The notes under the pieces: model-generated
The model's database searches: none
What the model was told of the DNA's origin: nothing
The model's input: only the letters and a program-made list of their open reading frames with translations
Part shown: in pieces, positions 2,612-60,303 of the stretch
Numbering within the stretch: position 1 is the stretch's first letter
Layout: each line of letters begins with the position of its first letter
DNA from: Mycoplasmatota bacterium
GTDB taxonomy: Bacteria > Bacillota_I > Bacilli_A > RF39 > UBA660
Direction of reading: 5' to 3'
Length of the DNA: 64,000 nt
NCBI GenBank assembly: GCA_022771205.1
Contig: JALFCF010000005.1
Coordinates: forward strand, 90,399 to 154,398
Position numbers and translations under genes: made by a program

Positions 2612-2769
2612 CAAAACACCTCCTTCATATTTAGGGATGCCATAAAAAAGGTTCTCGAGCAACCGAGAACCTTCTTATATTCACTTAAGATTAAGTCCTC
2701 GGTAGGATTTATTTTTGTACCTACTGTCTATGGCACCTACAAATTGTCTTTATTATACCCTATAACTTA
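2612..2769 (-). promoter_or_regulatory. rplJ (L10) leader with attenuator-like hairpin
   Basis: 158-nt untranslated gap between rplA and rplJ contains the hairpin GGTTCTCGGTTGCTCGAGAACC followed by a U run. Its position matches the autoregulatory L10(L12)4 leader of Firmicutes. Confidence 0.4.
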
Positions 2770-20608: not shown

Positions 20609-20884
20609 CTATTTTTTACGAAATTTTTTAAAAAAAGAAAAAGTAGTATAAAACCCTAAAAATAAAAGAAAATAAAAATAAACATGAACAATCCCATTAT
20701 TTATCATCTGCAATACTAAAAAATATAACAGCGCCATATCCAATAAGAATAACAAAGTAATAATAACTTGAATTATTTTGTTTCTATAAAACAAAAATTG
20801 ATAATGAAGATTAAATAAAAAAGAAAAGAAAACACCATACAAAAAAGAAAAAAGAAAAGAAATAATTTGTATTTTTAAATTCAT
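20609..20884 (-). CDS. yabQ: YabQ-like small membrane protein (spore cortex/coat associated)
   Basis: 91 aa with 3 TM helices. Start overlaps the yabP stop (ATGA). Assigned by position and topology only. Confidence 0.45.
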   Translation of the reverse strand: MNLKIQIISFLFSFLYGVFFSFLFNLHYQFLFYRNKIIQVIITLLFLLDMALLYFLVLQMINNGIVHVYFYFLLFLGFYTTFSFFKKFRKK

Positions 20885-21171
20885 TATTTAAACAAACGAT
20901 TAAATATACTATTTTCTTTATCTTTTTTTACATCTTCAATATAGGTCATACTATAAATAAGCCCCTTAATAGAAACATTACCTTGCATAGTGTCTAATTT
21001 TATTAACTCTAATCCTTCTCCTTTAATCATTAAGAAACCCATAATAGTATCCAAAAGAAATTGCTCATTATCAAAATTCTCTATTTTCTTAACACCAGTA
21101 ATAACTAAATTTTTTCTTTCTAATAGACTAATACCATGATTGTAATTGTTGATTGTATCTTGTTTATCCAT
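20884..21171 (-). CDS. yabP: sporulation protein YabP
   Basis: LVITGVKKIENFDNEQFLLDTIMGFLMIKGEGLELIKLD..GNVSIKG matches the YabP family. Confidence 0.65.
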   Translation of the reverse strand: MDKQDTINNYNHGISLLERKNLVITGVKKIENFDNEQFLLDTIMGFLMIKGEGLELIKLDTMQGNVSIKGLIYSMTYIEDVKKDKENSIFNRLFK

Positions 21172-21231
21172 AAAATCCTCCTGATAAATAATATGCTAAA
21201 TTAAAAAAATTATACAAAAAAAGAAGACTTA

Positions 21232-21510
21232 CTAGTCTTCATTTTCAGTTGGCTCTTCAGCTTTTTCATAAGCATCTAAAATTGCTTCTTCAAACATTGC
21301 TCTCACTTCTGGATTAATTGGATGAGCAACATCACGATAACCACCAGTAGCTGTCTTTCGGCTAGGCATAGCTATGAATAGTCCGTTGTCTCCATCAATG
21401 ATTCGAATATCATGTACTGCAAAACTATCATCTAATAATACAGAAGCAATACCCTTCATACGAGATCCTTCCTTATTAATTTTGCGTACATTTACAGATG
21501 TAATTTTCAT
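21232..21510 (-). CDS. spoVG: septation/sporulation regulator SpoVG
   Basis: MKITSVNVRKINKEGSRMKGIASVLLDDSFAVHDIRIIDGDNGLFIAMPSRK, a near-canonical SpoVG. Confidence 0.88.
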   Translation of the reverse strand: MKITSVNVRKINKEGSRMKGIASVLLDDSFAVHDIRIIDGDNGLFIAMPSRKTATGGYRDVAHPINPEVRAMFEEAILDAYEKAEEPTENED

Positions 21511-21604
21511 GTAATATTCCTCCCTCTTAAAGTATTACACTTTACACTTTAATTCTATAATAATTCCTAAAAAATTGCAATGATTTTTACACTTTAGAAA
21601 GAGT
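21511..21604 (-). promoter_or_regulatory. spoVG upstream region with sigma-A-like promoter and three copies of TAAAGTGTAA
   Basis: On the minus strand: TTGCAA, a 17-nt spacer, then TAGAAT. The 10-mer TTACACTTTA (plus-strand notation) occurs at 21535-44, 21542-51 and 21587-96. Confidence 0.3.
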
Positions 21605-21817
21605 TTAAGGTAAAATTTCTAAACTTTGAGTCAAAATATCACTATAACTAAATGTTTTTATTTTATTATTTTCAGTTTCAATAGTAAATATTGCTGGATA
21701 TAAATCAACAATCACACCATGAAATTCATCTACTTGATTTCGTGAACCATGAAAGCGAAAAGAGCACTTTATACCTTGATTTTGTTCTACAACTTTCTTT
21801 ATATTATCAATCATCAT
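21605..21817 (-). CDS. veg: Veg-family small protein
   Basis: FRFHGSRNQVDEFHGVIVDLYPAIFTIE...FSYSDILT resembles Veg. Confidence 0.65.
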   Translation of the reverse strand: MMIDNIKKVVEQNQGIKCSFRFHGSRNQVDEFHGVIVDLYPAIFTIETENNKIKTFSYSDILTQSLEILP

Positions 21818-22578
21818 CTTGGATACCCCACATACATAGTACCATTAGTGATAATTCCTCCCATTCCATCTTTACCATACTTTGTTTTTTCTAAGATGTG
21901 AATTAAATCTATGCTTTTATTTCTATCTGCTAATGCTAAAGAACAGGCTAAAATTGCTGGATCCAACGCATGAATATTAATTCTTTTAGGACTTGAAGCA
22001 AAATTAGCACCTGCTTTTATTAATTCTTCATAATTAGACTGACAAGCCCCCGCTATAATAATTAACTTATCTTGACTTTTTTCATATTTCCTAGCTTCTC
22101 TTACAGCTTCAATAAAATTCAAAGAGTTTTGATAATCTCCTCTATTTTTCTTTAAATAAGCATCATGACCAGTTATCACAACTATATCAGGCTGAAATTC
22201 ATCTAATAATCCATGAATTTTTCTAGGTATTTCTATCTCAGAAACAGTAAGACCATTAGCTTTTACGTTCATTTCCTTATAAAAATTCATACATCTTTTT
22301 AAATAATCACTATCCCCATCAATATGTAAAATCTTACCAGGTAAATAAAAATACTGACTCCTATCCATTTCTAAACTTCTTAAACTTTTTTCCACTATCT
22401 GTTTGTCAGAATCCAAAGAAACATTAGTCTTAACTAAATCAGATAACAAACTATCTGCATAAAGTCTTAAATCAGCACCTTTTAAAAATGCAATATTTCC
22501 ATCAATAGAAACTATTTTAAAAACGATATCATGATTATGAGAAATCCTTGTAACATAATCACCTTCATGAAAATCCAT
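21814..22578 (-). CDS. yabG: sporulation-specific protease YabG
   Basis: N-terminus MDFHEGDYVTRISHNHDIVFKIVSIDGNIAFLKG..LRLYADS is YabG-like. Located between ksgA and veg. Confidence 0.65.
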   Translation of the reverse strand: MDFHEGDYVTRISHNHDIVFKIVSIDGNIAFLKGADLRLYADSLLSDLVKTNVSLDSDKQIVEKSLRSLEMDRSQYFYLPGKILHIDGDSDYLKRCMNFYKEMNVKANGLTVSEIEIPRKIHGLLDEFQPDIVVITGHDAYLKKNRGDYQNSLNFIEAVREARKYEKSQDKLIIIAGACQSNYEELIKAGANFASSPKRINIHALDPAILACSLALADRNKSIDLIHILEKTKYGKDGMGGIITNGTMYVGYPR

Positions 22579-28774: not shown

Positions 28775-29025
28775 CCCTCCTAAAAAAAAACTATTATAAA
28801 TATAAGGACGAAAACTCGCGGTACCACCTTATTTTATAATAGTAAATATTATACGCTTAAATAGTTAACGCCTATCTACGATTACACCTACATATCGATG
28901 CAATAGTTCAGAAGCCATATCATATAAAATGTTCATATCCATTTCCACCACCAGGACTCTCTATAACAAACATTGCTTATAAGACTCTTCCTCAAAACAA
29001 TCAATATGGCTAGAGTATAACACAA
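28775..29025 (-). promoter_or_regulatory. T-box riboswitch leader of metS
   Basis: Minus strand contains AAGGTGGTACCGCGAG (reverse complement of 28815..28830), which matches the T-box consensus AGGGUGGNACCGCG, about 45 nt upstream of the metS SD. The variable N is U, complementary to an A73 discriminator. Confidence 0.55.
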
Positions 29026-33740: not shown

Positions 33741-34310
33741 TCACCTATTTTTACGATTATAGCGATTCATTAAAGATAAAAAATCTAATACAAAATAATC
33801 ATCAAGAACCTCAACCAAAGAATTAAATAATTCTTCTAATTGCTTTTCTTCTTCTCTAGAAAATCGACCTAAAACATAATCTTTAGTCTCTCGTGATTTA
33901 TCATTAGAAATTCCTATCTTCAATCGCTTATACTGTTGAGTATGAACACATGACTCAATATTGCGTAATCCATTATGTCCACCACAAGAACCTTTGTCTT
34001 TTAACTTAAAATTACCAACATTCAAATCTAAGTCATCTGAAATAATTAATAAATCAGAAACATCTACTTTAAAAAAGTTAATAAACTGTGAAACAACAGT
34101 ACCAGATAAATTCATATAAGATTGAGGTTTCAAAAATATAACTTTCTCTCCATTTAAATTAATCTCACAATAAAGACCTTGAAACTTATTTTTCCAAGTT
34201 ACAATAATATTTTTGTAATTTAAATAATAATCTAAAAAAGAAAAACCAACATTATGTCGAGTACCCTCATATTCTCTACCTGGATTACCTAATCCTACAA
34301 TAATCTTCAT
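33741..34310 (-). CDS. pth: peptidyl-tRNA hydrolase
   Basis: MKIIVGLGNPGREYEGTRHNVGF, canonical Pth. Confidence 0.92.
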   Translation of the reverse strand: MKIIVGLGNPGREYEGTRHNVGFSFLDYYLNYKNIIVTWKNKFQGLYCEINLNGEKVIFLKPQSYMNLSGTVVSQFINFFKVDVSDLLIISDDLDLNVGNFKLKDKGSCGGHNGLRNIESCVHTQQYKRLKIGISNDKSRETKDYVLGRFSREEEKQLEELFNSLVEVLDDYFVLDFLSLMNRYNRKNR

Positions 34311-34330: not shown

Positions 34331-34350
34331 ATTATTTCCCGGGAAATAAT
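34331..34350. repeat. perfect 20-bp palindrome ATTATTTCCCGGGAAATAAT abutting the rsmI stop, with flanking A/T runs
   Basis: Read directly. A near-identical copy (ATTATTTCCTGGGAAATAAT) lies at 41389..41408 and a half copy at 41376..41385. Confidence 0.6.
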
Positions 34351-35193
34351 TTATTTTTTATTCTCATGATATTCTTTATATACAATGGACTTAGCTATTC
34401 CTCTTTCTTTGGCAACAGTTTTAATAGCATCTTTCTCACTAATGCCATCATCCAAATAAAGATTAATATGCTCTAAAATAGACATACTAGAATAATCAAT
34501 ATCATCATGATTACCATCAACTACTACTACAAACTCTCCCTTTAACTCTGAAACAATAGGAATAAGTTCTTGTATTGTGCCACGACAAATTTCTTCATGC
34601 AACTTAGAAATTTCTCGATGAATACTAATATTACGATTACCAAAAATTTCTAACATATACCTCATAGTTTTTTCTATGCGATGTGGAGCCTCATAAAAAA
34701 CTAATGTATAAGGTAATTTACTTAAACTCATAAGTTCTCTTTTAATTTTAGATTCTTTTGTCTGTAAAAAACCATAAAATAAAAATGGAGAAGGTGAAAG
34801 TCCAGAAGAAGTTAAGGCAGGAACAAAAGCAGTTGCCCCAGGAAGAGCAATAACATTTAAATGATTAGCTATAACAGCTTTAGAAACCACATATCCTGGA
34901 TCACTAACAATTGGAGAGCCTTGATCAGTAATTAGTCCAATATTTTTACCTTTTTTTAATTCAGAAATAATATATTCCTTTATTTTATCTTCATTATATT
35001 CATGACAACTAACCAATCTCTTTTTTATATTAAAATGATTTAATAATTTACTACTCTCCCTCGTATCTTCACATAAAATAAAGTCTACCATTTCCAATAC
35101 TTTAAGTGCACGAACTGTAATATCATCCAAATTTCCAATCGGGGTTGGAATCAAATATAAACTGGCACTACCATCATAACTACTCTGTCTCAT
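34351..35193 (-). CDS. rsmI: 16S rRNA (cytidine1402-2'-O)-methyltransferase
   Basis: Tetrapyrrole-methylase fold (LYLIPTPIGNLDDITVRAL). Start ATG at 35193 behind GGAGG. Confidence 0.8.
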   Translation of the reverse strand: MRQSSYDGSASLYLIPTPIGNLDDITVRALKVLEMVDFILCEDTRESSKLLNHFNIKKRLVSCHEYNEDKIKEYIISELKKGKNIGLITDQGSPIVSDPGYVVSKAVIANHLNVIALPGATAFVPALTSSGLSPSPFLFYGFLQTKESKIKRELMSLSKLPYTLVFYEAPHRIEKTMRYMLEIFGNRNISIHREISKLHEEICRGTIQELIPIVSELKGEFVVVVDGNHDDIDYSSMSILEHINLYLDDGISEKDAIKTVAKERGIAKSIVYKEYHENKK

Positions 35194-35920
35194 TCTTAAC
35201 CTCCAATAAAAACTTTTCATATTCAGCTGTTTTAACACCATTATCTGTATACATGATAAATGGTTTTTCTACTTTCAAACCAGATTTTCCATTTTTAGTT
35301 CCCTCCAATAAAACTAAAGTAGAAGATTTATTAATCATTTCATGAACAAATTGAATTCTTTTAGGTTCAATATGATATTTACGAAATAGATCAAAAATTT
35401 CTAATAATCTATCAGTACGATGAACAATAGCAAAATTACCATTATTTTTTAGTAATCTAGAAGCAACATGAATAACATCTTCCAATGATATACACACTTC
35501 ATGCCTAGCAATCATTTTTTCTTTTCGTTCATTAAAAAAATTTTTATCATTAACTTTAAAATATGGTGGATTACAAGTAATAACATCATATCTTTCAATC
35601 GTCTTAGGCATAACATAATCTTTCATATCACAATTTATAATAGAAATTTGAGATTCAAGTTTATTATATTGAACAGACTTTTCAGCTAAGTTAGCTAAAG
35701 GTTGTTGAATTTCAACACCAACAATAGGCTTATTAGTACGAATCGATAAAATAAGTGGTATTACTCCATTACCAGTACCTAAATCAAGAATATTTTTATC
35801 TCGTAACCGAATAGTAACAAAATTTGAAAGCATGACACTATCTAAAGAAAATGAAAAAAAATCTGTATTTTGATAAATCTTACGATTAGGATAACCTAAA
35901 ATGTCATTCAACACTTCCAT
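35180..35920 (-). CDS. SAM-dependent N6-adenine methyltransferase, YabB/TrmN6-like
   Basis: DLGTGNGVIPL SAM motif and NPPY catalytic motif (ITCNPPYF). Confidence 0.55.
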   Translation of the reverse strand: MEVLNDILGYPNRKIYQNTDFFSFSLDSVMLSNFVTIRLRDKNILDLGTGNGVIPLILSIRTNKPIVGVEIQQPLANLAEKSVQYNKLESQISIINCDMKDYVMPKTIERYDVITCNPPYFKVNDKNFFNERKEKMIARHEVCISLEDVIHVASRLLKNNGNFAIVHRTDRLLEIFDLFRKYHIEPKRIQFVHEMINKSSTLVLLEGTKNGKSGLKVEKPFIMYTDNGVKTAEYEKFLLEVKNETE

Positions 35921-40494: not shown

Positions 40495-40944
40495 TTAACT
40501 ATTTCTTCTATTTCTAAAAAACTCTTTCATAATTCTATCTACTTTTTCCACAGCCAAGTCATTAATAATAGAAACACCAGCATTATTTTTATCAGATTTT
40601 AAAATTTGTAAAACTATTTCACTATTTTTAGAATCAGAATTAGATAATCCACAATAAATGTGACTAACTCTAGCTTGTTTTAATGCACTAGCACACATAG
40701 GACATGGTTCTAAAGTAATATACGCATCACATTGTTCCAATCTCCAATTATTTATTTTAGATGATGCTTCTTCTATAGCTAAAATTTCCGCATGTTTAGT
40801 AGCAGAATTCATTTGTTCTTTCATATTATGAGTTAAAGCTAACACATGGTTATTTTTAACAATTACACATCCAACCGGCACTTCTCCTTGTTCAAAAGCC
40901 TTTTTTGCCTCTTCTAAAGCCATATCCATATATTTTAAATTCAT
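40495..40944 (-). CDS. tadA: tRNA-specific adenosine deaminase
   Basis: HAEILAI ... PCPMCASAL CDA zinc motifs. Confidence 0.88.
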   Translation of the reverse strand: MNLKYMDMALEEAKKAFEQGEVPVGCVIVKNNHVLALTHNMKEQMNSATKHAEILAIEEASSKINNWRLEQCDAYITLEPCPMCASALKQARVSHIYCGLSNSDSKNSEIVLQILKSDKNNAGVSIINDLAVEKVDRIMKEFFRNRRNS

Positions 40945-40957
40945 AAATCACCTCAAA

Positions 40958-41045
40958 ATAAAAGCGCACATAAAAGTTAATCATTAAGGCTGCTACTTCC
41001 CAGTCCTGACCTGTTTCTGACACTTTTATTGCGCTACAACCATTT
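40958..41045 (-). ncRNA. ffs: signal recognition particle RNA, small (4.5S-like) type; ends approximate
   Basis: Minus strand reads GUAGCGCAAUAAAAGUGUCAGAAACAGGUCAGGACUGGGAAGUAGCAGCCUUAAUGAUUAACUUUUAUGUGCGCU. It contains the domain IV motif AGGUCAGG...GGAAG.AGCAGCC, closed by the helix GCGCAAUAAAAGU/ACUUUUAUGUGCGC. Confidence 0.7.
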
Positions 41046-41095
41046 TAATATAAAGAAACAAATTTGTAAATAATATTTTTAATTATCTATATTAT

Positions 41096-41116
41096 ATGTT
41101 CCACGTGAAACTTTTT
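41096..41116. repeat. copy 1 of the 21-bp motif ATGTTCCACGTGAAACTTTTT (CACGTG-centred palindrome)
   Basis: Read directly. Identical to copy 2. Confidence 0.7.
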
Positions 41117-41207
41117 AGATACATAAAAAAAACGAAATCTCCGATAATGATTCTTTTAACATATTTTTCTTTTTACTAAATTCACCATATAAAACAGAAT
41201 CAAAACA

Positions 41208-41228
41208 ATGTTCCACGTGAAACTTTTT
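41208..41228. repeat. copy 2 of ATGTTCCACGTGAAACTTTTT
   Basis: Read directly. 112 bp after copy 1. Confidence 0.7.
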
Positions 41229-41432
41229 TTTAAATATATATGTGTTTATATTATTATTGAACTAATATAAAACACTATTAAAAACAATAAAATCAAATTC
41301 ATTATTTCAATATCATTAATATATAAATTTTATATATGTTAAGTAGAACAAAATCATAATAAAAGCACCATAAAAATTATTTCCCAAAATTATTTCCTGG
41401 GAAATAATCTAATTAATAACAAAAAGAAATAT

Positions 41433-41453
41433 ATGTTTCACGTGAAACTCTTC
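41433..41453. repeat. copy 3, ATGTTTCACGTGAAACTCTTC (perfect 14-bp palindrome GTTTCACGTGAAAC)
   Basis: Read directly. A degenerate fourth copy (ATGTTAAGTAGAAC) lies at about 41336..41349. Confidence 0.65.
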
Positions 41454-41771
41454 AAATAAATTAATATAAAAAACCATAACACTAGTAAAAAATACCCACA
41501 TAACATACTACCTTTCTTTGAAAATTATTTCTATAAATATTAATTATATATATATATATACGTAAAATTTATGCTTGAAAACAGAAAAAAACATGACTTG
41601 CGTTTTATATTTGTTGTTTCAAAAAACTTTTTTCCACAGGTGATAGAAGCAAAATTGAATAAATAAAAAAACAAACATTAAAAATATATTGATATATAAG
41701 GAATCTAAAACGCAAAATAAAAGAAGTAAAATTTTTACTTCTTTTATTCTAAATAACCATTATAAATCAAA

Positions 41772-44282
41772 CTATTTACTAATTTCGTTGGTTTGCGTAT
41801 TTTCTTCGTTTGAAATATTTTTTTCCACAGATGATTGTTCCTCGTTTTCACTGTTTTCTTCTGTATCATCTTCTTTATCCACAATAGCAACAGTAGAAAC
41901 CTTTTGATCATCTTTCAAATTAATCAATCTAATTCCTTGAGTTGCTCGTTTCAAAGTAGATACTTGTTCTAATGGTAATTTAATGATAACACCACTATCT
42001 GTCATAATCATTAAATCACTTTCATTCTCTGGATTAACGCATTTCAAAGCAACCATCATACCATTTTTATCTGTAATATTAAGTGCTTTAACTCCTTTGC
42101 TACCACGATGAGTTAAACGATACTCATCTATTTCTGATTTTTTACCATAACCATTCTCTGTAACAATCAAAATCAATTGATTTTGCTTAAGTACTTCAGC
42201 ACCAATAACCTTACTATCATCTAGTTCAATTCCTTTAACTCCTGAAGCAGTACGTCCCATTACGCGAACTTCATCCTCATTAAATCGAACCATTCTACCA
42301 TTATTAGATCCTATTGCAATCTCATCATTACCAGTAGTAACACCGACATAAATTAATTCGTCATCCTCTTTTAAAGTAATTGCAATTTTACCACTCTTAC
42401 GTATATTATCAAACTCAGATAATTCTGTACGCTTAATAATACCATTTTTAGTGACAAAAACTAAATACTTATGTTCTTCATTATCTGCAGATAAAGAAAT
42501 AATAGAACTAACATTTTCATCTTTTTCTAATTGTAATAAATTGATAATTGGTAATCCCTTAGATTGCCTACTAAATTCAGGAACTTCATAACCCTTCATT
42601 CTATAAATTCTACCCTTATTTGAGAAGAATAATATATAATCATGAGTCTTCATAGAAACCAATTGTTCCACAAAATCTTCTTCATTCGTAGCCATACCCT
42701 TAACACCTACACCACCACGGTTTTGAGTTTTATAAGTATCAGCCTTCAAACGCTTAATATAACCTTTATGAGTCAAAGTAACAATTATATCCTCAACAGG
42801 AATTAATGACTCGTCTTCAATATATTCTATAGCCGTCATATCAATGTTTGTACGACGTTCATCACCATATTTATTCTTAATTTCAGTCATCTCATCCTTA
42901 ATAATTTGTAATACTTTAGGTTCACTTGCCAAAATAGACTTCAATTCTTCAATTTCAGCAAGTAATTCTTGCAACTCATTCTCAATCTTATCTCTTTCTA
43001 ATCCCGTCAAACGACGTAATTTCATCTCTAAAATAGCTTGAGCTTGCGCTTCTGACAATTTGTAATTATTTCTAAGACCTAACATTGCCTCTTCATCATT
43101 TTTAGCAGACTTAATTAATTGAATAATATCATCTATGTGATCTAAAGCAATTTTCAATCCTTCTAAAATATGAGCTCTAGCCTCATCTTTTGCTAAATCA
43201 AACTTTGTACGACGAATAATTATTTCCTTTTGATAATCAATATATTTAGAAATAATATCCTTTAATCCCAATGTCTTTGGAACACCTTGGTCTAACATTA
43301 AGAAAATAATTCCATAATTTGTTTGAAACGCAGTATGCTTATATAAATTATTAAGCACAACTTGTGGATTAGCATCTTTTTTAAGAGTAATAGTAATTTT
43401 AATACCATCTTTTAAATCAGTATGATAATCAGTAATACCATCAATTACCTTATTATGAACAAGTTCAGCCACTTTATTTTTTAATTCTAATGTATTTATA
43501 CCATAAGGAACTTCATCAACGATAATATAATGTCTACCATTTTTCTCTTCTATTCTAGCCTTACTACGAATAGTTATACTTCCTCTACCTGTTTCATAAG
43601 CTTTCTTAATACCACTATTACCTAAAATAGTAGCCCCGGTTGGAAAATCAGGTCCCTTAATATACTGCATTAACCCATCCACATCAATATCTGGATTATC
43701 AATATAAGCAATACATCCATCAATAACTTCCTTCAAATTATGAGGAGGTATATTGGTAGCCATACCAACAGCTATCCCCATAGTTCCATTAACTAAAATA
43801 TTAGGAAATCTAGAAGGTAATATTTCAGGTTCCTTTTCAGATTCGTCAAAGTTAGAAATAAAATTAACAGTATCTTTATTAATATTTCTAAGTAATTCCA
43901 ATGATATTTTAGATAAACGAGACTCTGTATAACGCATTGCAGCAGCCCCATAACCTTCAATATTACCAAAATTACCATGACCATCAACTAACATATAACG
44001 ATAAGAAAAATCTTGTGCCATACGAACCATAGCTTCATATATACTAGAGTCACCATGAGGGTGATATTTTCCCATGACATCTCCAACTATTCTAGCGCTC
44101 TTCTTATGGGGTTTGTCAGGTGTATAACCTGATTCATACATCGAATACAAAATTCGTCTGTGAACAGGCTTTAAACCATCTCTAAGATCAGGTAAAGCAC
44201 GAGATACAATAACACTCATCGAATATTCAAGAAAAGAGTCCTTTACTTCATTAACTATATTATTCTGTTCCAATCTATCCAT
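41772..44282 (-). CDS. gyrA: DNA gyrase subunit A
   Basis: [24 protein letters not shown] and the active-site Tyr region. Acidic C-terminal tail. Confidence 0.95.
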
Positions 44283-44295
44283 CTTTTCCTACCTC

Positions 44296-46233
<1,938 letters not shown>

Positions 46234-49174: not shown

Positions 49175-49306
49175 TTATATTCCTTCTTTCTTTTTTTGTT
49201 TTTATTATTATTACTGTGGAAAAAGTGAAAAACTATAATTTTAATAAGTTCTACAATGATTTTAACATATTTTATCTTGTGGAAAAAGAAAAGTTTTTCA
49301 TTTTTT
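49175..49306. promoter_or_regulatory. oriC part 2 (dnaA-dnaN spacer): DnaA boxes plus an AT-rich unwinding region
   Basis: TGTGGAAAA (= TTTTCCACA) at 49214-49224 and 49276-49287. T/A tracts at 49180-49210 and 49291-49306. Confidence 0.55.
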
Positions 49307-50695
49307 TTACACAACCCCTATATCTTTTTTTAATTTTTCAATGATATTTGCTAAATCTTTGTTAACTTTTATTTCTCTTTCAATCTTCTCGACAGAATGC
49401 ATTACTGTAGTATGATCTTTTCCACCAAATTCAGTACCAATTTTAGGGAATGACTCATTTGTCATAATTCTACAGAGGTACATTGCAATCTGACGTGGAA
49501 AAGAAATATTAGAACTTCTCTTCTTACTTCGAATATCTTCAACAGAAATCTGAAAGTATTCAGATACAATTTTTTGAATACGCTGAACGTCGTTCTTTTC
49601 CCCCATTCCTTTACTAATAAAGTCTTTTAGTGCTTCAATAGCTAAGTCTAAAGTAATTTCGGCACCTCCCATGATTGTAGAATATGCAATTAATCTAGTA
49701 ATAGATCCTTCTAATTGTCTAACATCAGTACCAATATTCGAAGCTATATATTCGACAACATCATCTGGAATTTCTGTTTCAAAGTTACCAGCGATAATCT
49801 TTTTCTTTAAAATTTCCGTTCGAAGAGTAAAATCTGGAGGGAAAATATTTACTGTTAATCCCCAACAAAATCGAGTACGAAGACGATCTTCAAGCAATTT
49901 TAAGTCATCAGGAGACCTATCAGAAGATATAATTATTTGTTTACTATCATTATATAAGCTATTAAATGTGTGAAAAAATTCCTGCTGTGTTTGTGTAGCT
50001 CCGCCTAGAAATTGAATATCATCAATAATTAATACATCAATGTTTCTATATTTATTTTTAAAGAAATCCACATAATTAAAATTTGTACCTTTATCATCTT
50101 TTTTGTTAATTCCAATAAAATCTTGAATAAATTGATCAGATGTAACATAAAGAACACGACGATTACTGTTTTCAGTAATATAATTTCCTATCGCATGCAT
50201 TAAATGAGTCTTACCTAATCCACTATTACCATAAATAAATAGTGGGTTGTACATATTTCCTGGATTTTCAGCAACAGATAATGCAGCAGCATGAGCAAAC
50301 TTGTTACTATTTCCTACAATAAAATTATCAAAAGTATATTTGCTCTTCAAATTTGATTGTGCTTGATTATGTGGAACTCCGAAGTTCTCATTATTATTTT
50401 GAATATCCCCCTGCTCTATTTCAATAGTTTTTTCTTCCTCTTCAACAATTTCTTCTTTCAGTAAGAACACTAATTCAAAATTAGTACCAGTAATATTATT
50501 TAAATGATTCAATATAAGATCTGAATAATTATCTGCTAAATGTTTCTTATGTATCGGCATTGGTACAATAATATAGGCTTTACCACCATCAAGTTTATGC
50601 AATTCAGTATCTTTAAACCAAGTATCAAAAGAAAGAGAGGTCAAATCGTCTTTAACTTCTGTTAGAAATTTAGACCACAAAATATCTACATTCAT
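49307..50695 (-). CDS. dnaA: chromosomal replication initiator DnaA
   Basis: AAA+ (GNSGLGKTHL), DnaA signature, C-terminal HTH. Start ATG at 50695 (MNVDILWSKF). The 39 upstream codons in the track read through the DnaA-box array. Confidence 0.95.
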   Translation of the reverse strand: MNVDILWSKFLTEVKDDLTSLSFDTWFKDTELHKLDGGKAYIIVPMPIHKKHLADNYSDLILNHLNNITGTNFELVFLLKEEIVEEEEKTIEIEQGDIQNNNENFGVPHNQAQSNLKSKYTFDNFIVGNSNKFAHAAALSVAENPGNMYNPLFIYGNSGLGKTHLMHAIGNYITENSNRRVLYVTSDQFIQDFIGINKKDDKGTNFNYVDFFKNKYRNIDVLIIDDIQFLGGATQTQQEFFHTFNSLYNDSKQIIISSDRSPDDLKLLEDRLRTRFCWGLTVNIFPPDFTLRTEILKKKIIAGNFETEIPDDVVEYIASNIGTDVRQLEGSITRLIAYSTIMGGAEITLDLAIEALKDFISKGMGEKNDVQRIQKIVSEYFQISVEDIRSKKRSSNISFPRQIAMYLCRIMTNESFPKIGTEFGGKDHTTVMHSVEKIEREIKVNKDLANIIEKLKKDIGVV

Positions 50696-50790
50696 TCGAC
50701 CATCTCCCCACAAGTAAAAATTATACCAATAGTTTAGCTCAAATTGTGAAAAAAAGAAAGAAAAAAACACAAAAAAAAAGAAATCACAAG

Positions 50791-50922
50791 CTATCCACAA
50801 AATATTCCACAAAAAAAGTTAAATAAAATAAAGATAAAAATAGCATTTCCACAGTTTCCACAGATTTTTTATAACAACCGTGTAAAACCAAATCCACAGC
50901 ACTGTGGATATTGTGGAAACAA
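50791..50922. promoter_or_regulatory. oriC part 1 (upstream of dnaA): cluster of about 7 DnaA boxes
   Basis: Both orientations are present: tATCCACAa, TTCCACAa, tTTCCACAg x2, aATCCACAg, TGTGGATAt and TGTGGAAAc, all within 130 bp. Confidence 0.65.
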
Positions 50923-50950
50923 TAAAAAGCCTTAAATTTGTAAGTTATGA

Positions 50951-50980
50951 TTGACAAAACAAAGATATTATTATTATAAT
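50951..50980 (+). promoter_or_regulatory. sigma-A-type promoter for rpmH
   Basis: TTGACA (50951-56), a 17-18 nt spacer, then TATAAT (50975-80). Confidence 0.5.
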
Positions 50981-51012
50981 AATGTAGATTTATGTCTGGA
51001 GGTGGAGAGAAG

Positions 51013-51135
51013 ATGAAAAGAACATATCAACCAAACAATCGTAAAAAATCAAAAAGATTAGGATTTTTCGCACGTAAGAAAACAAATATTTTAAATCGTC
51101 GTCGTCGCAAAGGACGTAAAAACCTTTGTAAATAA
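51013..51135 (+). CDS. rpmH: 50S ribosomal protein L34
   Basis: MKRTYQPNNRKKSKRLGFFARKKTNILNRRRRKGRKNLCK, a canonical L34 behind a GGTGGAGAGA SD. Below the ORF-track size cutoff. Confidence 0.92.
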   Translation: MKRTYQPNNRKKSKRLGFFARKKTNILNRRRRKGRKNLCK

Positions 51136-51183
51136 TTTACCGCTGCTAAAACAGTGGTTTTTTACTTATAAAGAGGTGATAAG

Positions 51184-56988: not shown

Positions 56989-57081
56989 CTCTTTTTATTT
57001 TCATTTTTCTTGAAAGTAAAATGAAAATAGTCTATAATGATAACATAGGATAACTGTAAGAATAAAAAGTGAGGGATGAGT

Positions 57082-58536
57082 ATGCAAGAACAAACTAAAG
57101 ATGAAGTTGTATACCTATATTTAGATGATATCATACCAAACAGATTTCAACCTCGCGAGGTTTTTGACGAAAGAGCTTTAAAAGAATTAGCTGTATCAAT
57201 TAAAGAACATGGAGTAATTCAGCCAATTATAGTAAGAAATGTTAATGGTAAGTATGAAATAATTGCTGGTGAAAGAAGATATAAAGCCTCTGCTATGGCG
57301 GGTTTAACAAAAATTCCCGCAATTATTAGAAATTTAGATGATAAAGAAAGTTCAAAAGTAGCATTGTTAGAAAATCTCCAAAGAAGAAATTTAAATCCGA
57401 TCGAAGAAGCTAGAACTTATCAAAAAATATTAGAACTTGATCAAATGACTCAAGAAGAATTGGCAAAAACAATGGGAAAAAGTCAATCAGCAGTTGCTAA
57501 TAAAATAAGACTATTAGGCCTTACAGATGAAGTACAAGATGCTTTATTGAAAGAACAAATATCAGAGCGTCATGCTAGAACATTATTAAATATATCAGAT
57601 GCAAAGAAGCAAAAAGAAATGCTAAAAAGGATAATAAATGAAAAAATGACGGTACGGCAATTAGAAGCAGAAATAAAAAGTATGTACCCTAAAGAGGAGG
57701 GGGAAACAGTGAGTAATACATCTACAGCAATCACATCAGCAGCTTTTGTAAATACTAGTCCATTGATGCCAACAGCAGATTTACCAGAAGATAAATCCAA
57801 TTATGGTCAAATAAAAATTGCACCACCCACTGGTACAGAAGAAGAATATCAACCAAGATTTATAAATTATGGAGAGATAAAAGATGATGATGAAGATGAT
57901 GATGAAGTACCAATTGGTGGAATTAATCCGGACAGTACTCAATCTATTCCTAATATAAAAGATATTAAGGAAAAAGCAGTTGACATTAATGCTCCACAGG
58001 CACAGCCAACAGCAGATTTAGACAGTTTATTAAATATTACAGCAGCATCCTCAGGAATTTCAAAACCAGATGAACATTATAAATTTATTACTCCAGCAGA
58101 AGAAATAGTAAAAACAGATGCAAGCAAAGCAAATAAAGCTAAGGTACAAGATTATTTTAAAACTCCCGATTTGATACCAGTAAATTTACCAAATGAAGTC
58201 CAATCTACTAAAGAAACAAACCAAGTTTCTTTATCTGAGATAGAAGCTAAATCAAAGCTGCAAAATAAATCAGCTGAATCAACAACCTTGCATGATTCAA
58301 GATATGATAAAAAGACTTTAAACAATACAAACTTAAATACAAACTTATTTGGCAATATCCAAAGAACAAATTTGAACGATAAGAAAAACAATCAATTTAC
58401 AGTACAACAATCTATAGATATGATTAGAAACTTAGTGGACGAATTAAATCGTCATGGAGTAAACGCAGATATTGATGAAATGAACTTTTCTAAATCATAT
58501 CAAATTATTATAAAATTAGATAAGACAGCAGAGTAA
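57082..58536 (+). CDS. noc: ParB/Noc-like nucleoid occlusion protein homolog with long low-complexity C-terminal extension
   Basis: ParB N-domain (IIAGERRYKAS) and HTH (QEELAKTMGKSQSAVANKIRLLGL) lie within the first ~200 aa. About 280 extra residues follow: Ser/Thr/Asn/Lys-rich with an acidic DDDEDDDE block and a short structured-looking C-terminus. Located in the rsmG-noc-soj-spo0J slot. Confidence 0.7.
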   Translation: MQEQTKDEVVYLYLDDIIPNRFQPREVFDERALKELAVSIKEHGVIQPIIVRNVNGKYEIIAGERRYKASAMAGLTKIPAIIRNLDDKESSKVALLENLQRRNLNPIEEARTYQKILELDQMTQEELAKTMGKSQSAVANKIRLLGLTDEVQDALLKEQISERHARTLLNISDAKKQKEMLKRIINEKMTVRQLEAEIKSMYPKEEGETVSNTSTAITSAAFVNTSPLMPTADLPEDKSNYGQIKIAPPTGTEEEYQPRFINYGEIKDDDEDDDEVPIGGINPDSTQSIPNIKDIKEKAVDINAPQAQPTADLDSLLNITAASSGISKPDEHYKFITPAEEIVKTDASKANKAKVQDYFKTPDLIPVNLPNEVQSTKETNQVSLSEIEAKSKLQNKSAESTTLHDSRYDKKTLNNTNLNTNLFGNIQRTNLNDKKNNQFTVQQSIDMIRNLVDELNRHGVNADIDEMNFSKSYQIIIKLDKTAE

Positions 58537-58566: not shown

Positions 58567-58634
58567 GAAAAGCATTTAAAAAAGAATATTTATTTGATAC
58601 AATATATTAGTAAAAATGGAAACAGGTGATAAAT

Positions 58635-59420
58635 ATGGGAAAGGTGATATCTTTAGTAAATCAAAAAGGTGGAGTGGGAAAAACAACAACCAGTATCAAT
58701 CTTTCTGCATCATTAGCAGTACTAGGTAAAAAAGTATTATTAATCGATTTAGACCCGCAAGGGAATACAACAACAGGGGTTGGTATTAATAAAGGTGACA
58801 TAGAACGAAGTGTCTATGATGTTTTAATTGGAGAATGTAAAATATCAGAAGCAATGATTAAAACGAAATATAAAAATTTATATGTTCTACCAGCAACAAT
58901 TAACTTAGCTGGTTTAGATATAGAATTGGTAGAAAAAAGTAAACAAGAATCAGGATTTTTAAAAGGAGAACAATTAAAAATCCATTTGATTGATATAAAA
59001 GATAGCTTTGACTATATTATAATAGACTGTCCACCATCATTAGGCGTTATTACAACCAATGCTTTAACAGCCTCTAATTCGGTTATAATTCCAGTTCAAT
59101 GTGAATTCTTTGCATTAGAAGGAATTACTCAATTATTAAAAACTATTATGTTGGCACAGAAAAGTTTAAATCCAACATTGGATATAGAAGGTGTATTATT
59201 AACAATGTTAGATTCAAGAACTAACCTAGGATTTGAAGTCGTAGAAGATATCAGAAAATTTTTCAAAGAGAAGGTATACAACACAATAATTCCAAGACTA
59301 GTTCGATTGACAGAAGCACCTTCACATGGAGAACCAATTATTGCGTATGATCCTAAAAGTCGTGGAAGCGAAGCTTATTTAAATCTTGCAAAGGAAGTGA
59401 TTGAAAGAAATGGAAAATAA
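58635..59420 (+). CDS. soj: ParA-family ATPase Soj
   Basis: Deviant Walker A KGGVGKTTT. Start ATG at 58635 behind AGGTGA. Confidence 0.92.
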   Translation: MGKVISLVNQKGGVGKTTTSINLSASLAVLGKKVLLIDLDPQGNTTTGVGINKGDIERSVYDVLIGECKISEAMIKTKYKNLYVLPATINLAGLDIELVEKSKQESGFLKGEQLKIHLIDIKDSFDYIIIDCPPSLGVITTNALTASNSVIIPVQCEFFALEGITQLLKTIMLAQKSLNPTLDIEGVLLTMLDSRTNLGFEVVEDIRKFFKEKVYNTIIPRLVRLTEAPSHGEPIIAYDPKSRGSEAYLNLAKEVIERNGK

Positions 59421-60303
59421 TAAAAGAAGAGCTTTAGGAAGAGGCTTAGAAGAACTTTTTTATAACGAACCAATTGCTTACGATAAAATGGAAGAAAAAA
59501 TATTAACAGAAACTCCAAAAGAAGAAATAACGAATGTAAAAATATCCGAATTAAGAAGCAATCCATATCAACCAAGACAAGTATTTAAACAAGAAGCTCT
59601 ACAAGAATTATCAGATTCTATTAAAGAACATGGAGTTTTTCAGCCAATAATTATTAAGAAAAGTATTAAAGGGTATGAAATAATAGCTGGAGAGCGACGT
59701 GTAAAAGCATCACAAATGGCTGGACTTGATGAAATTCCTGCTATTATTAGAGATTTTACAGACGAAGAGATGATGGAGATTGCACTATTAGAAAATCTTC
59801 AAAGAGAAAACTTAAATCCAATTGAGGAATCTCGTGCTTATAAAAAATTGATAGAAACTTTAAATATTACACAAGAAGAGCTAGCAAAAAGATTAGGTAA
59901 AAGTAGAAGTTATATTACTAACATGATAGGACTACAAACATTACCTGCACCAATCCAAGATATGATTTCTGACAATAAAATGAGTATGGGTCATGCCAGA
60001 GTTCTAAGTAAATTAGAAAATGAAAATCAACAAAAAGAATTAGCAGATAAAATTATTGAAGATGGTATGAGTGTTCGAGAATTAGAAAATTTAACTAAAT
60101 CTTCAGACGAATACGAAAGAACTCATAAAATAAGAAAACACGTCAATACTCAAACTAATGAATATCAATATTTAGAAGATGAATTATGTGATAAACTTGG
60201 AACAAAAGTTAAAATAAAGTCAAATAAAATAGAGATTAGTTTTGTGAATGGAAACGACTTGAATCGCTTATTAGAAATTATGAATTTAGATACAAGGGGG
60301 TAA
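59410..60303 (+). CDS. spo0J: chromosome partitioning protein ParB/Spo0J
   Basis: GERRVKAS ParB box, HTH (QEELAKRLGKSRSYITNMIGL). Start ATG at 59410; the track start is a TTG. Confidence 0.88.
   Translation: MENNKRRALGRGLEELFYNEPIAYDKMEEKILTETPKEEITNVKISELRSNPYQPRQVFKQEALQELSDSIKEHGVFQPIIIKKSIKGYEIIAGERRVKASQMAGLDEIPAIIRDFTDEEMMEIALLENLQRENLNPIEESRAYKKLIETLNITQEELAKRLGKSRSYITNMIGLQTLPAPIQDMISDNKMSMGHARVLSKLENENQQKELADKIIEDGMSVRELENLTKSSDEYERTHKIRKHVNTQTNEYQYLEDELCDKLGTKVKIKSNKIEISFVNGNDLNRLLEIMNLDTRG

Follow-up and report, generated by a model that had tools for sequence, protein, structure and literature searches.

A parS cluster in the gyrA–tadA spacer of an uncultured Mycoplasmatota bacterium as a probable ParB loading region near oriC

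In Bacillus subtilis the parS sites of the partition protein ParB (Spo0J) are single sites scattered over hundreds of kb, mostly within genes, and they reportedly share the consensus TGTTNCACGTGAAACA. The binding sites of the ParB-family protein Noc (Noc-binding sites, NBS), reportedly described in the same species, number about 70 and are dispersed. Clusters of DnaA boxes outside oriC are represented by the DnaA-box clusters (DBCs) of B. subtilis and by datA of Escherichia coli, and sopC of the F plasmid consists of 12 repeats of 43 bp, each with a 16-bp SopB site. Here we analyze a short AT-rich island (positions 41046–41771) in the spacer between gyrA and tadA of a Mycoplasmatota bacterium. 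The whole stretch of DNA analyzed, referred to as the window, comprises 64,000 nt of contig JALFCF010000005.1 (GCA_022771205.1), and all positions are window coordinates unless a relative is named. Three 16-bp palindromes of this island are parS sites by sequence, and the island is very probably the centromere-like region of the chromosome at which ParB is loaded.

The idealised parS has been given as TGTTTCAC-GTGAAACA and the NBS consensus as TATTTCCC-GGGAAATA; at the specificity positions (Caulobacter numbering) ParB carries R173, T179, A184 and G201 where Noc carries Q, K, K and R, and Q173 and R201 together with one permissive lysine (179 or 184) suffice for NBS specificity (Jalal et al. 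2020, PMC7383237). In Staphylococcus aureus NBS are found at 41 dispersed loci, and how Noc restrains DnaA-dependent initiation in this species is open (PMC5540599). According to a 2020 review, an N-terminal amphipathic membrane helix is a hallmark of Noc, 20–23 parS sites lie near oriC in Streptomyces coelicolor and Listeria innocua, and both the reason for the variation in parS number and the driver of parS clustering are open questions (PMC7333895).

The CACGTG palindromes and their partition proteins

A reading of this DNA from its letters and open reading frames (ORFs), referred to below as the sequence-only reading, had pointed to three near-identical copies of a CACGTG-centred motif. 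All three are found where it had placed them, as ATGTTCCACGTGAAACTTTT at 41096 and 41208 and as ATGTTTCACGTGAAACTCTT at 41433 (in a shorter form, ATGTTCCACGTGAAACT for the first two and ATGTTTCACGTGAAACT for the third), and the third copy indeed has a perfect 14-bp palindrome, GTTTCACGTGAAAC, as its core (41435–41448). The three sites, of the general form TGTT(C/T)CACGTGAAACT, each match the Firmicute parS consensus at 15 of 16 positions, the single mismatch being at the outermost base (Table 1). Searching the 64 kb for the consensus with up to 2 mismatches yields exactly these three matches, whereas 0.03 are expected from dinucleotide shuffles, none of 100 shuffles reaching the observed count. 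The sites are contained within 353 bp with an irregular spacing, being 112 and 225 bp apart. Two details of the earlier description need adjustment. The element (t)atatgtt, said to precede every copy, is not found ahead of copy 2, which is preceded by caATGTT. The degenerate fourth copy proposed near 41336 (ATGTTAAGTAGAACA, 2 bp short) is indistinguishable from chance, since it lacks the CACGTG core and gives no match even when 3 mismatches are allowed.

A switch in GC skew is located near 51 kb, adjoining dnaA (49307–50812, minus strand); the skew switch together with dnaA puts oriC at about 51 kb and hence the parS sites at the short distance given in Table 1. On the other side of oriC from the island are encoded rsmG, a Noc-like ParB paralog, parA and parB, in a gene order as in Bacillus. 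The ParB protein carries the GERR motif and an N-terminal KRRALGRGL peptide, and among solved structures it comes closest to Spo0J of B. subtilis (6SDK, 219 bits, versus 160 bits for Noc). Its specificity residues R, M, T and G are of the parS type (GKSR...N...GHAR, where R and G are equivalent to Caulobacter R173 and G201). Thus, it is the parS match, the distance of about 9.5 kb to oriC, the presence of ParA and of a parS-type ParB in the window, and the retention of the same locus in relatives (see below) that lead us to read the island as a centromere. By analogy with described ParABS systems (PMC7333895, PMC7383237), ParB dimers would nucleate on each of the three parS sites, bind cytidine triphosphate (CTP) and close into clamps, which would slide onto the flanking DNA and build a partition complex; this complex would in turn stimulate ParA (Soj) and load SMC, so that the origin region would be organised and segregated first.

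Comparison with the B. subtilis system reveals the same 16-bp palindrome, copies 1 and 2 sharing the TGTTCCACGTGAAAC core of the spo0J site, as well as origin-proximal sites, a parA-parB pair near oriC and a ParB with the CTP-binding GERR motif and the R/G specificity residues. In contrast to B. subtilis, the window has three sites in 353 bp of one non-coding spacer, none of them in parB, and all three have T at position 16.

Two other readings of the palindromes had been offered. The first, short hairpin terminators, was suggested by the runs of T5–T8 that follow copies 1 and 2 on the plus strand. We give it next to no probability, for several reasons. The plus-strand RNA folds of the three copies reach only −0.6, 0 and −3.5 kcal/mol; for copies 1 and 2 shuffled sequences do equally well, whereas only 10 of 200 shuffles equal copy 3, whose −3.5 kcal/mol is nonetheless weak. 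Folding both strands gives weak structures throughout, and a consensus terminator scan returns no match. Across 251 related sites conservation covers the 18-bp palindrome but not the T-run, and gyrA possesses a separate, strong terminator of its own (Table 1). Moreover, no plus-strand gene lies upstream of the palindromes; the minus strand encodes gyrA, the RNA of the signal recognition particle (SRP RNA) and tadA alike, so that the T-runs of the plus strand follow nothing transcribed from that strand.

The second reading, operators arrayed for some unknown dimeric regulator, was on the right track, except that the protein is a known one: the sites are parS of ParB/Spo0J, and the gene for a parS-type ParB lies at a distance of 18 kb. 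What had been an operator array of unknown function becomes an annotated parS cluster, and a putative centromere is located in an uncultured gut bacterium with a small genome. A transcription factor other than ParB, dedicated to the control of the SRP RNA or of the tadA-dnaX operon, would find an argument in the position of parS-1, which closely precedes the −35 element of the ffs (SRP RNA) promoter and is found at the same place ahead of this promoter in two close relatives (L002 and L008). It is nevertheless very improbable in our view. With sites that match parS this closely and a cognate ParB encoded in the window, a separate regulator is unnecessary; no other candidate regulator gene adjoins the island, and in the relatives as many as 12 copies extend over 2 kb in tandem units, an arrangement ill-suited to a single promoter.

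Conservation of the locus and tandem arrays in relatives

In order to follow the locus outside the window, 80 loci of relatives were picked by GyrA similarity alone, with one genome per species. They stem from uncultured gut "Bacilli/Tenericutes" metagenome-assembled genomes (MAGs) and include Candidatus Faecimonas (94% GyrA identity), Ca. Onthousia and Clostridium sp. CAG:710; we take the clade that they form to be the RF39 lineage. The sites were counted at up to 1 mismatch for parS and NBS, the gyrA–tadA spacers totalling 56 kb and the remaining flanks 873 kb. Numbers in the spacers versus the flanks are 253 versus 11 for parS (about 360-fold enrichment), 161 versus 25 for NBS (about 100-fold) and 32–33 versus 70 for perfect DnaA boxes (about 7-fold). 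Among the 54 complete gyrA–tadA spacers, 53 contain parS, most of them in 2–12 copies, and 46 contain NBS.

In many relatives the two palindromes alternate in regular tandem parS+NBS units: a 64-bp unit is repeated 7.8 times in L042 (3813–4309 of that locus) and a 75-bp unit 8.8 times in L073 (8574–9233), and units of 56–136 bp with one NBS and one parS each also occur in L022, L031, L036, L039 and L057. Arrays of parS only are found in a minority (L061, L062, L065, L071, L074–L077 and L080), for instance 7 repeats of 37 bp in L071, 7 repeats of 39 bp in L077 and 12 sites in L065. Sequence conservation extends no further than an 18-bp A-parS-T palindrome and, for the NBS, the palindrome plus flanking AAA/TTT, the surroundings of the 251 related parS sites being at background level. 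An NBS lies at most 100 bp from a parS in 131 of 173 cases, in either order, with start-to-start distances from 21 bp upwards and mostly of 21–60 bp; these spacings reveal no fixed helical phasing between NBS and parS in the relatives' spacers. Hybrids between the two kinds of site are absent: among 416 sites that fit a generic frame, 266 are pure parS, 150 are pure NBS and none is mixed.

These counts also bear on a generic dispersed repeat, of the repetitive extragenic palindromic (REP) or miniature inverted-repeat transposable element (MITE) kind, or on chance palindromes in AT-rich filler, both without site-specific function. The tandem amplification and the rapid turnover of unit length (37 to 136 bp) seen in the relatives are what a repeat might produce, and the island is just 55–61% identical to its closest relatives. 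On the other hand, the motif is not dispersed, there being no copy elsewhere in the 64 kb and the flanks of the relatives containing few in comparison with their spacers. Chance would account for only a small fraction of one match in the window, the core of the motif remains invariant amid changing surroundings, no hybrid site is seen, and parS is kept at the locus. Neither dispersal nor want of conservation, the two outcomes named beforehand as fatal to a site-specific role, is thus observed, and we consider the repeat explanation extremely improbable.

Metagenome contigs were scanned independently with exact patterns for NBS within 4–34 bp of parS, without use of gene information, and at least 120 contigs were recovered. 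Among the 120 contigs listed, 82 have gyrA and 28 more have tadA beside the sites, 7 have other genes of the window, mostly dnaX (6), and 3 are short contigs without a gene match. Since 110 of the 120 contigs listed carry gyrA or tadA, close pairing of NBS and parS appears nearly exclusive to the gyrA–tadA locus of this clade, in which full-length GyrA proteins are about 61–82% identical to that of the window. Together with the 80 related genomes, these at least 110 contigs point to one spacer that concentrates ParB and Noc sites, and DnaA boxes in a subset. A single contig among those listed, L168 (1553–4008), has its NBS/parS pair adjoining parA-parB. Among the relatives picked by GyrA similarity, nine contigs (L010, L016, L023, L026, L030, L053, L056, L059 and L060) stop 30–500 bp past the gyrA stop codon, in the array or at its edge. 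Because many contigs end just after gyrA, the array lengths in short-read MAGs are likely too low; such assemblies probably break or collapse at the arrays, so that both lengths and copy numbers are underestimated.

With the clusters of S. coelicolor and L. innocua the locus shares several origin-near parS sites whose number varies between relatives. It differs from them in that the sites are confined to one intergenic spacer of less than 2.5 kb and, in the relatives, are arranged in head-to-tail units interleaved with the sites of a second ParB-family protein. The arrays of the relatives, with units of 37–136 bp in 4–9 repeats and one ParB-family palindrome each, resemble F sopC, whereas they differ from it by their chromosomal location and by units with two palindromes (parS and NBS); the window itself, with three irregular copies, has no regular array.

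The NBS-like palindrome, the Noc-like paralog and the DnaA boxes

A 20-bp palindrome noticed in the sequence-only reading is present at 41389–41408 but is imperfect, with 18 of 20 positions paired around a CTGG centre. Its core, TATTTCCTGGGAAATA, resembles the NBS consensus, a likeness that had been missed, and is preceded by an additional half-site; a second, perfect NBS is located elsewhere in the window (Table 1). The putative NBS binder is the Noc-like paralog whose gene directly precedes parA. Among solved structures it is closest to those of Noc (7NFU, 214.6 bits, versus 180.7 bits for ParB), and with the NCBIfam model nucleoid_noc (TIGR04285) it scores 284.5 bits versus 240.4 for the ParB of the window. 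The specificity residues Q, K, G and R are of the NBS type (GKSQ...NK...G...ERHAR), and the GERR motif is present. Between the DNA-binding part and a conserved C-terminal tail (EMNFSKSYQIIIKLDK) a low-complexity linker of about 230 aa is inserted. This long form constitutes a conserved family: among the best 120 clusters, members have 427–510 aa and are 57–100% identical, Q-K-x-R is kept in 118 of 120, and about 18 residues precede PNRFQPR in almost all. The long protein could be assigned to four relatives, three with NBS in the spacer (L027, L033 and L048) and one without (L034).

Like Noc of B. subtilis and S. aureus, the paralog is encoded before parA, has the Q/K/R residues and the GERR motif, has Noc as its nearest structural neighbor, and is accompanied by the NBS palindrome, in perfect form at 34333 and as an NBS-like version with 1 mismatch in the island. 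Unlike these systems, the window and its relatives have their NBS concentrated next to parS, and often the two alternate in tandem units; the protein has no N-terminal amphipathic helix but the insert of about 230 aa. On this evidence it is likely, though by no means assured, that the Noc-like paralog loads at the NBS-like palindrome and extra half-site of the island, presumably as a clamp in the manner outlined above for ParB at parS.

The DnaA-box-like site at 41630 had been described as a lone one. This does not hold, as further copies of TTTTCCACAG are located at 40544 and 41821, and gyrA contains at 41875 the only perfect DnaA box of the window, TTATCCACA. The two boxes in the 3′ end of gyrA share the orientation of the one at 41630. 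A direct repeat of 35 nt (D3, 77%) links the spacer (41610–41644, TTTTTTCCACAGGTGAT) to the 3′ end of gyrA (41801–41835, TTTTTTTCCACAGATGAT); its CTGTGGA(A/T)AAA core is kept at both places in L001, L002 and L008, the GyrA tail being otherwise variable. The presumed oriC regions, i.e., the dnaA-dnaN spacer (49215–49286) and the region upstream of dnaA (50791–50911), have 2 DnaA boxes each at up to 1 mismatch, none of them perfect.

In the relatives, a perfect TTATCCACA occupies the position of the 41630 site in the same orientation in L001, L002, L003, L006 and L008. The perfect boxes in the relatives' spacers compare with 0.66 expected under a first-order Markov model, and boxes in the sense of gyrA are over-represented between −100 and +200 relative to its stop codon. 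Moreover, a perfect box directly abuts parS in L018, L020, L021, L033 and L034, and NBS, DnaA box and parS lie within about 50 bp of each other in L047 (8700–9540) and L064 (8480–8940), e.g., as TATTTCCCGGGAAATAATTT-TTATCCACA-ATGTTTCACGTGAAACAT in L064. With the DBCs of B. subtilis and datA of E. coli, the locus has in common origin-proximal, intergenic sites, here putative ones, of the DnaA-box kind outside oriC proper; it differs in having only 1–3 near-consensus boxes, which in some relatives abut parS or NBS. Binding of DnaA to the near-consensus box at 41630 is conceivable, although we do not quite lean towards it.

Several observations weigh against the interpretation developed so far. 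Concerning parS, T replaces A at position 16 in all three sites of the window, so that one half-site reads AGTTTCAC, a feature common to several close relatives; the census covers 64 kb of the genome, and other, possibly stronger, parS sites may lie elsewhere. Concerning Noc, the one mismatch of the NBS-like site is central (CCTGGG instead of CCCGGG), and the score of the paralog is below the TIGR04285 cut-off of 315, positions 1–203 of the 255 of the profile being matched; we therefore name the protein Noc-like and not Noc. In addition, it lacks the N-terminal amphipathic membrane helix: the alignment to 7NFU begins at chain residue 21, and only about 18–20 polar residues stand ahead of PNRFQPR in the window protein and in its family, the most upstream start codon being already taken. 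Concerning DnaA, 26 box-like 9-mers at up to 1 mismatch are found in the whole window versus 22.9 expected, i.e., a number at chance, and the case for DnaA therefore comes from the relatives.

The central mismatch, the imperfect DnaA box in a window where such 9-mers are at chance level, and the missing helix and low family score would all fit an island that is a plain cluster of three parS sites, correctly identified as such, whose NBS-like and DnaA-box-like sites are decayed or non-functional passengers. However, the CCTGGG variant recurs in the arrays of nine relatives (L002, L006, L008, L022, L031, L033, L041, L042 and L072), and the module of NBS and extra half-site (NBS + GGGAAATAAT) is kept in L001, L002 and L008. 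The perfect NBS elsewhere in the window and the near-invariance of Q-K-x-R in the Noc-like family argue in the same direction. We give such a plain cluster a fair chance, though less than an even one.

With respect to the binding sites taken together, three chromosome-maintenance proteins appear to have their sites gathered in the spacer. It can tentatively be proposed, with more doubt than confidence, that in the RF39-like clade the gyrA-ffs-tadA spacer serves, some 10 kb from oriC, as a dedicated composite centre of chromosome organisation for ParB, for a helix-less Noc paralog with a long linker and for DnaA. Its tandem parS+NBS units, with a DnaA box wedged between in some, would load ParB clamps, Noc-paralog clamps and DnaA side by side. 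If so, segregation and Noc function, and possibly initiation control as well, would be physically linked at a single locus, whereas NBS in the model organisms are dispersed and remain separate from the centromere; the absence of any hybrid from mixed arrays would reflect selection for two orthogonal loaders acting together. The motif flagged initially is not novel, as parS, NBS, DnaA boxes and oriC-near parS clusters are already well known. A full-text search of a limited literature collection gave no description of a centromere fixed in the gyrA-ffs-tadA spacer across a large uncultured clade, of composite or interleaved parS+NBS tandem units with or without DnaA boxes, or of a helix-less, long-linker Noc-like family. 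The composite and amplified parS/NBS(/DnaA-box) layout fixed at the gyrA–tadA spacer, as far as can be judged from sequence, looks new as an arrangement. Three kinds of site within 50 bp, together with natural variants of copy number and spacing, would offer a defined substrate for the study of the interplay between ParB, Noc and DnaA.

Composition of the spacer and other features of the window

The local gene order, all on the minus strand, is gyrB (44296–46224), gyrA (41772–44282), the island, the SRP RNA, tadA (40495–40944) and dnaX. The description of the island as the longest non-coding stretch of the window and a very AT-rich one is borne out: its ORF-free run of 744 bp is the longest when ORFs of at least 60 aa are counted, and its GC content is 18.9% versus 28.5% for the window. 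The absence of tRNA genes at this place is likewise confirmed, ARAGORN finding none in the window; in the island, Rfam reports no RNA element besides the SRP RNA, whether at the gathering score or at E values of up to 1. No sign of a hidden small gene was found, the internal ORFs of the island being of only 30–44 aa and the alignment with L001, L002 and L008 showing nothing conserved outside the motif blocks. The promoter-like site stands directly in front of the SRP RNA, and it is together with parS-1 just upstream that it is kept in L002 and L008. The gyrA terminator folds with −16 kcal/mol (z = −5.95). Outside the conserved blocks the island is 55–61% identical to relatives whose GyrA is 94–96% identical. 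Besides the binding sites, two pieces of the island are conserved, namely the terminator of gyrA and the promoter of the SRP RNA; what remains is AT-rich filler of low conservation. The TA tract, given earlier as (TA)9 at 41548–41566, is in fact (TA)8 at 41545–41560.

Table 1. Coordinates of the sites, genes and RNA elements considered in the window
Feature	Position	Strand	Remarks
parS-1, TGTTCCACGTGAAACT	41097..41112		1 mismatch (outermost base) to TGTTNCACGTGAAACA; ~25 bp upstream of SRP RNA promoter −35
parS-2, TGTTCCACGTGAAACT	41209..41224		1 mismatch to consensus; belongs to repeat family D1
parS-3, TGTTTCACGTGAAACT	41434..41449		1 mismatch to consensus; 14-bp core perfectly palindromic
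NBS-like palindrome, TATTTCCTGGGAAATA	41391..41406		15/16 to NBS consensus TATTTCCCGGGAAATA; starts 43 bp before parS-3
Extra (third) NBS half-site, AAAATTATTTCC repeated 13 bp before full site	41373..41384		direct repeat D13 (41373–41397)
Perfect NBS, TATTTCCCGGGAAATA	34333..34348		in 40-bp gap between pth (33741–34310) and rsmI-like methylase gene (34351–35241)
DnaA-box-like site, TTTTCCACA	41630..41638	+	1 mismatch; 134 bp after gyrA stop
Two more DnaA boxes in gyrA 3′ end, TTTTCCACA at 41821 and perfect TTATCCACA at 41875	41821..41883	+	same orientation as 41630
Presumed oriC, dnaA-upstream spacer at GC-skew switch	50813..51183		9.4–9.7 kb from parS sites
Noc-like ParB paralog, inferred NBS binder	57076..58536	+	486 aa; just upstream of parA; ~15 kb from spacer
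ParA/Soj ATPase	58626..59420	+	Pfam AAA_31 and CbiA/ParA
ParB/Spo0J, inferred binder of the three parS	59401..60303	+	Pfam ParB_N and HTH_ParB; 18 kb from parS
Small SRP RNA (ffs/scr)	40948..41045	−	Rfam RF00169, 54.6 bits versus gathering score 40
SRP RNA promoter-like site, TTTACA, 17 nt, TAAAAT	41042..41070	−	10/12 consensus positions, best of the region; kept in L002 and L008
gyrA intrinsic terminator hairpin	41716..41748	−	perfect 16+16 nt inverted repeat I12, then UUUUGCGUUU on the minus strand
T-box leader	28801..29004	−	Rfam, 101.4 bits
Ribosomal protein L10 leader	2635..2751	−	Rfam, 56.1 bits

Away from the island, the window contains, besides the two leaders listed in Table 1, a group of sporulation-associated genes on the minus strand (20609–22578) that encode YabQ (a weak match of 24.7 bits, under the Pfam cut-off of 27), YabP, SpoVG, Veg and the YabG peptidase U57; the bacterium is a possible spore former.

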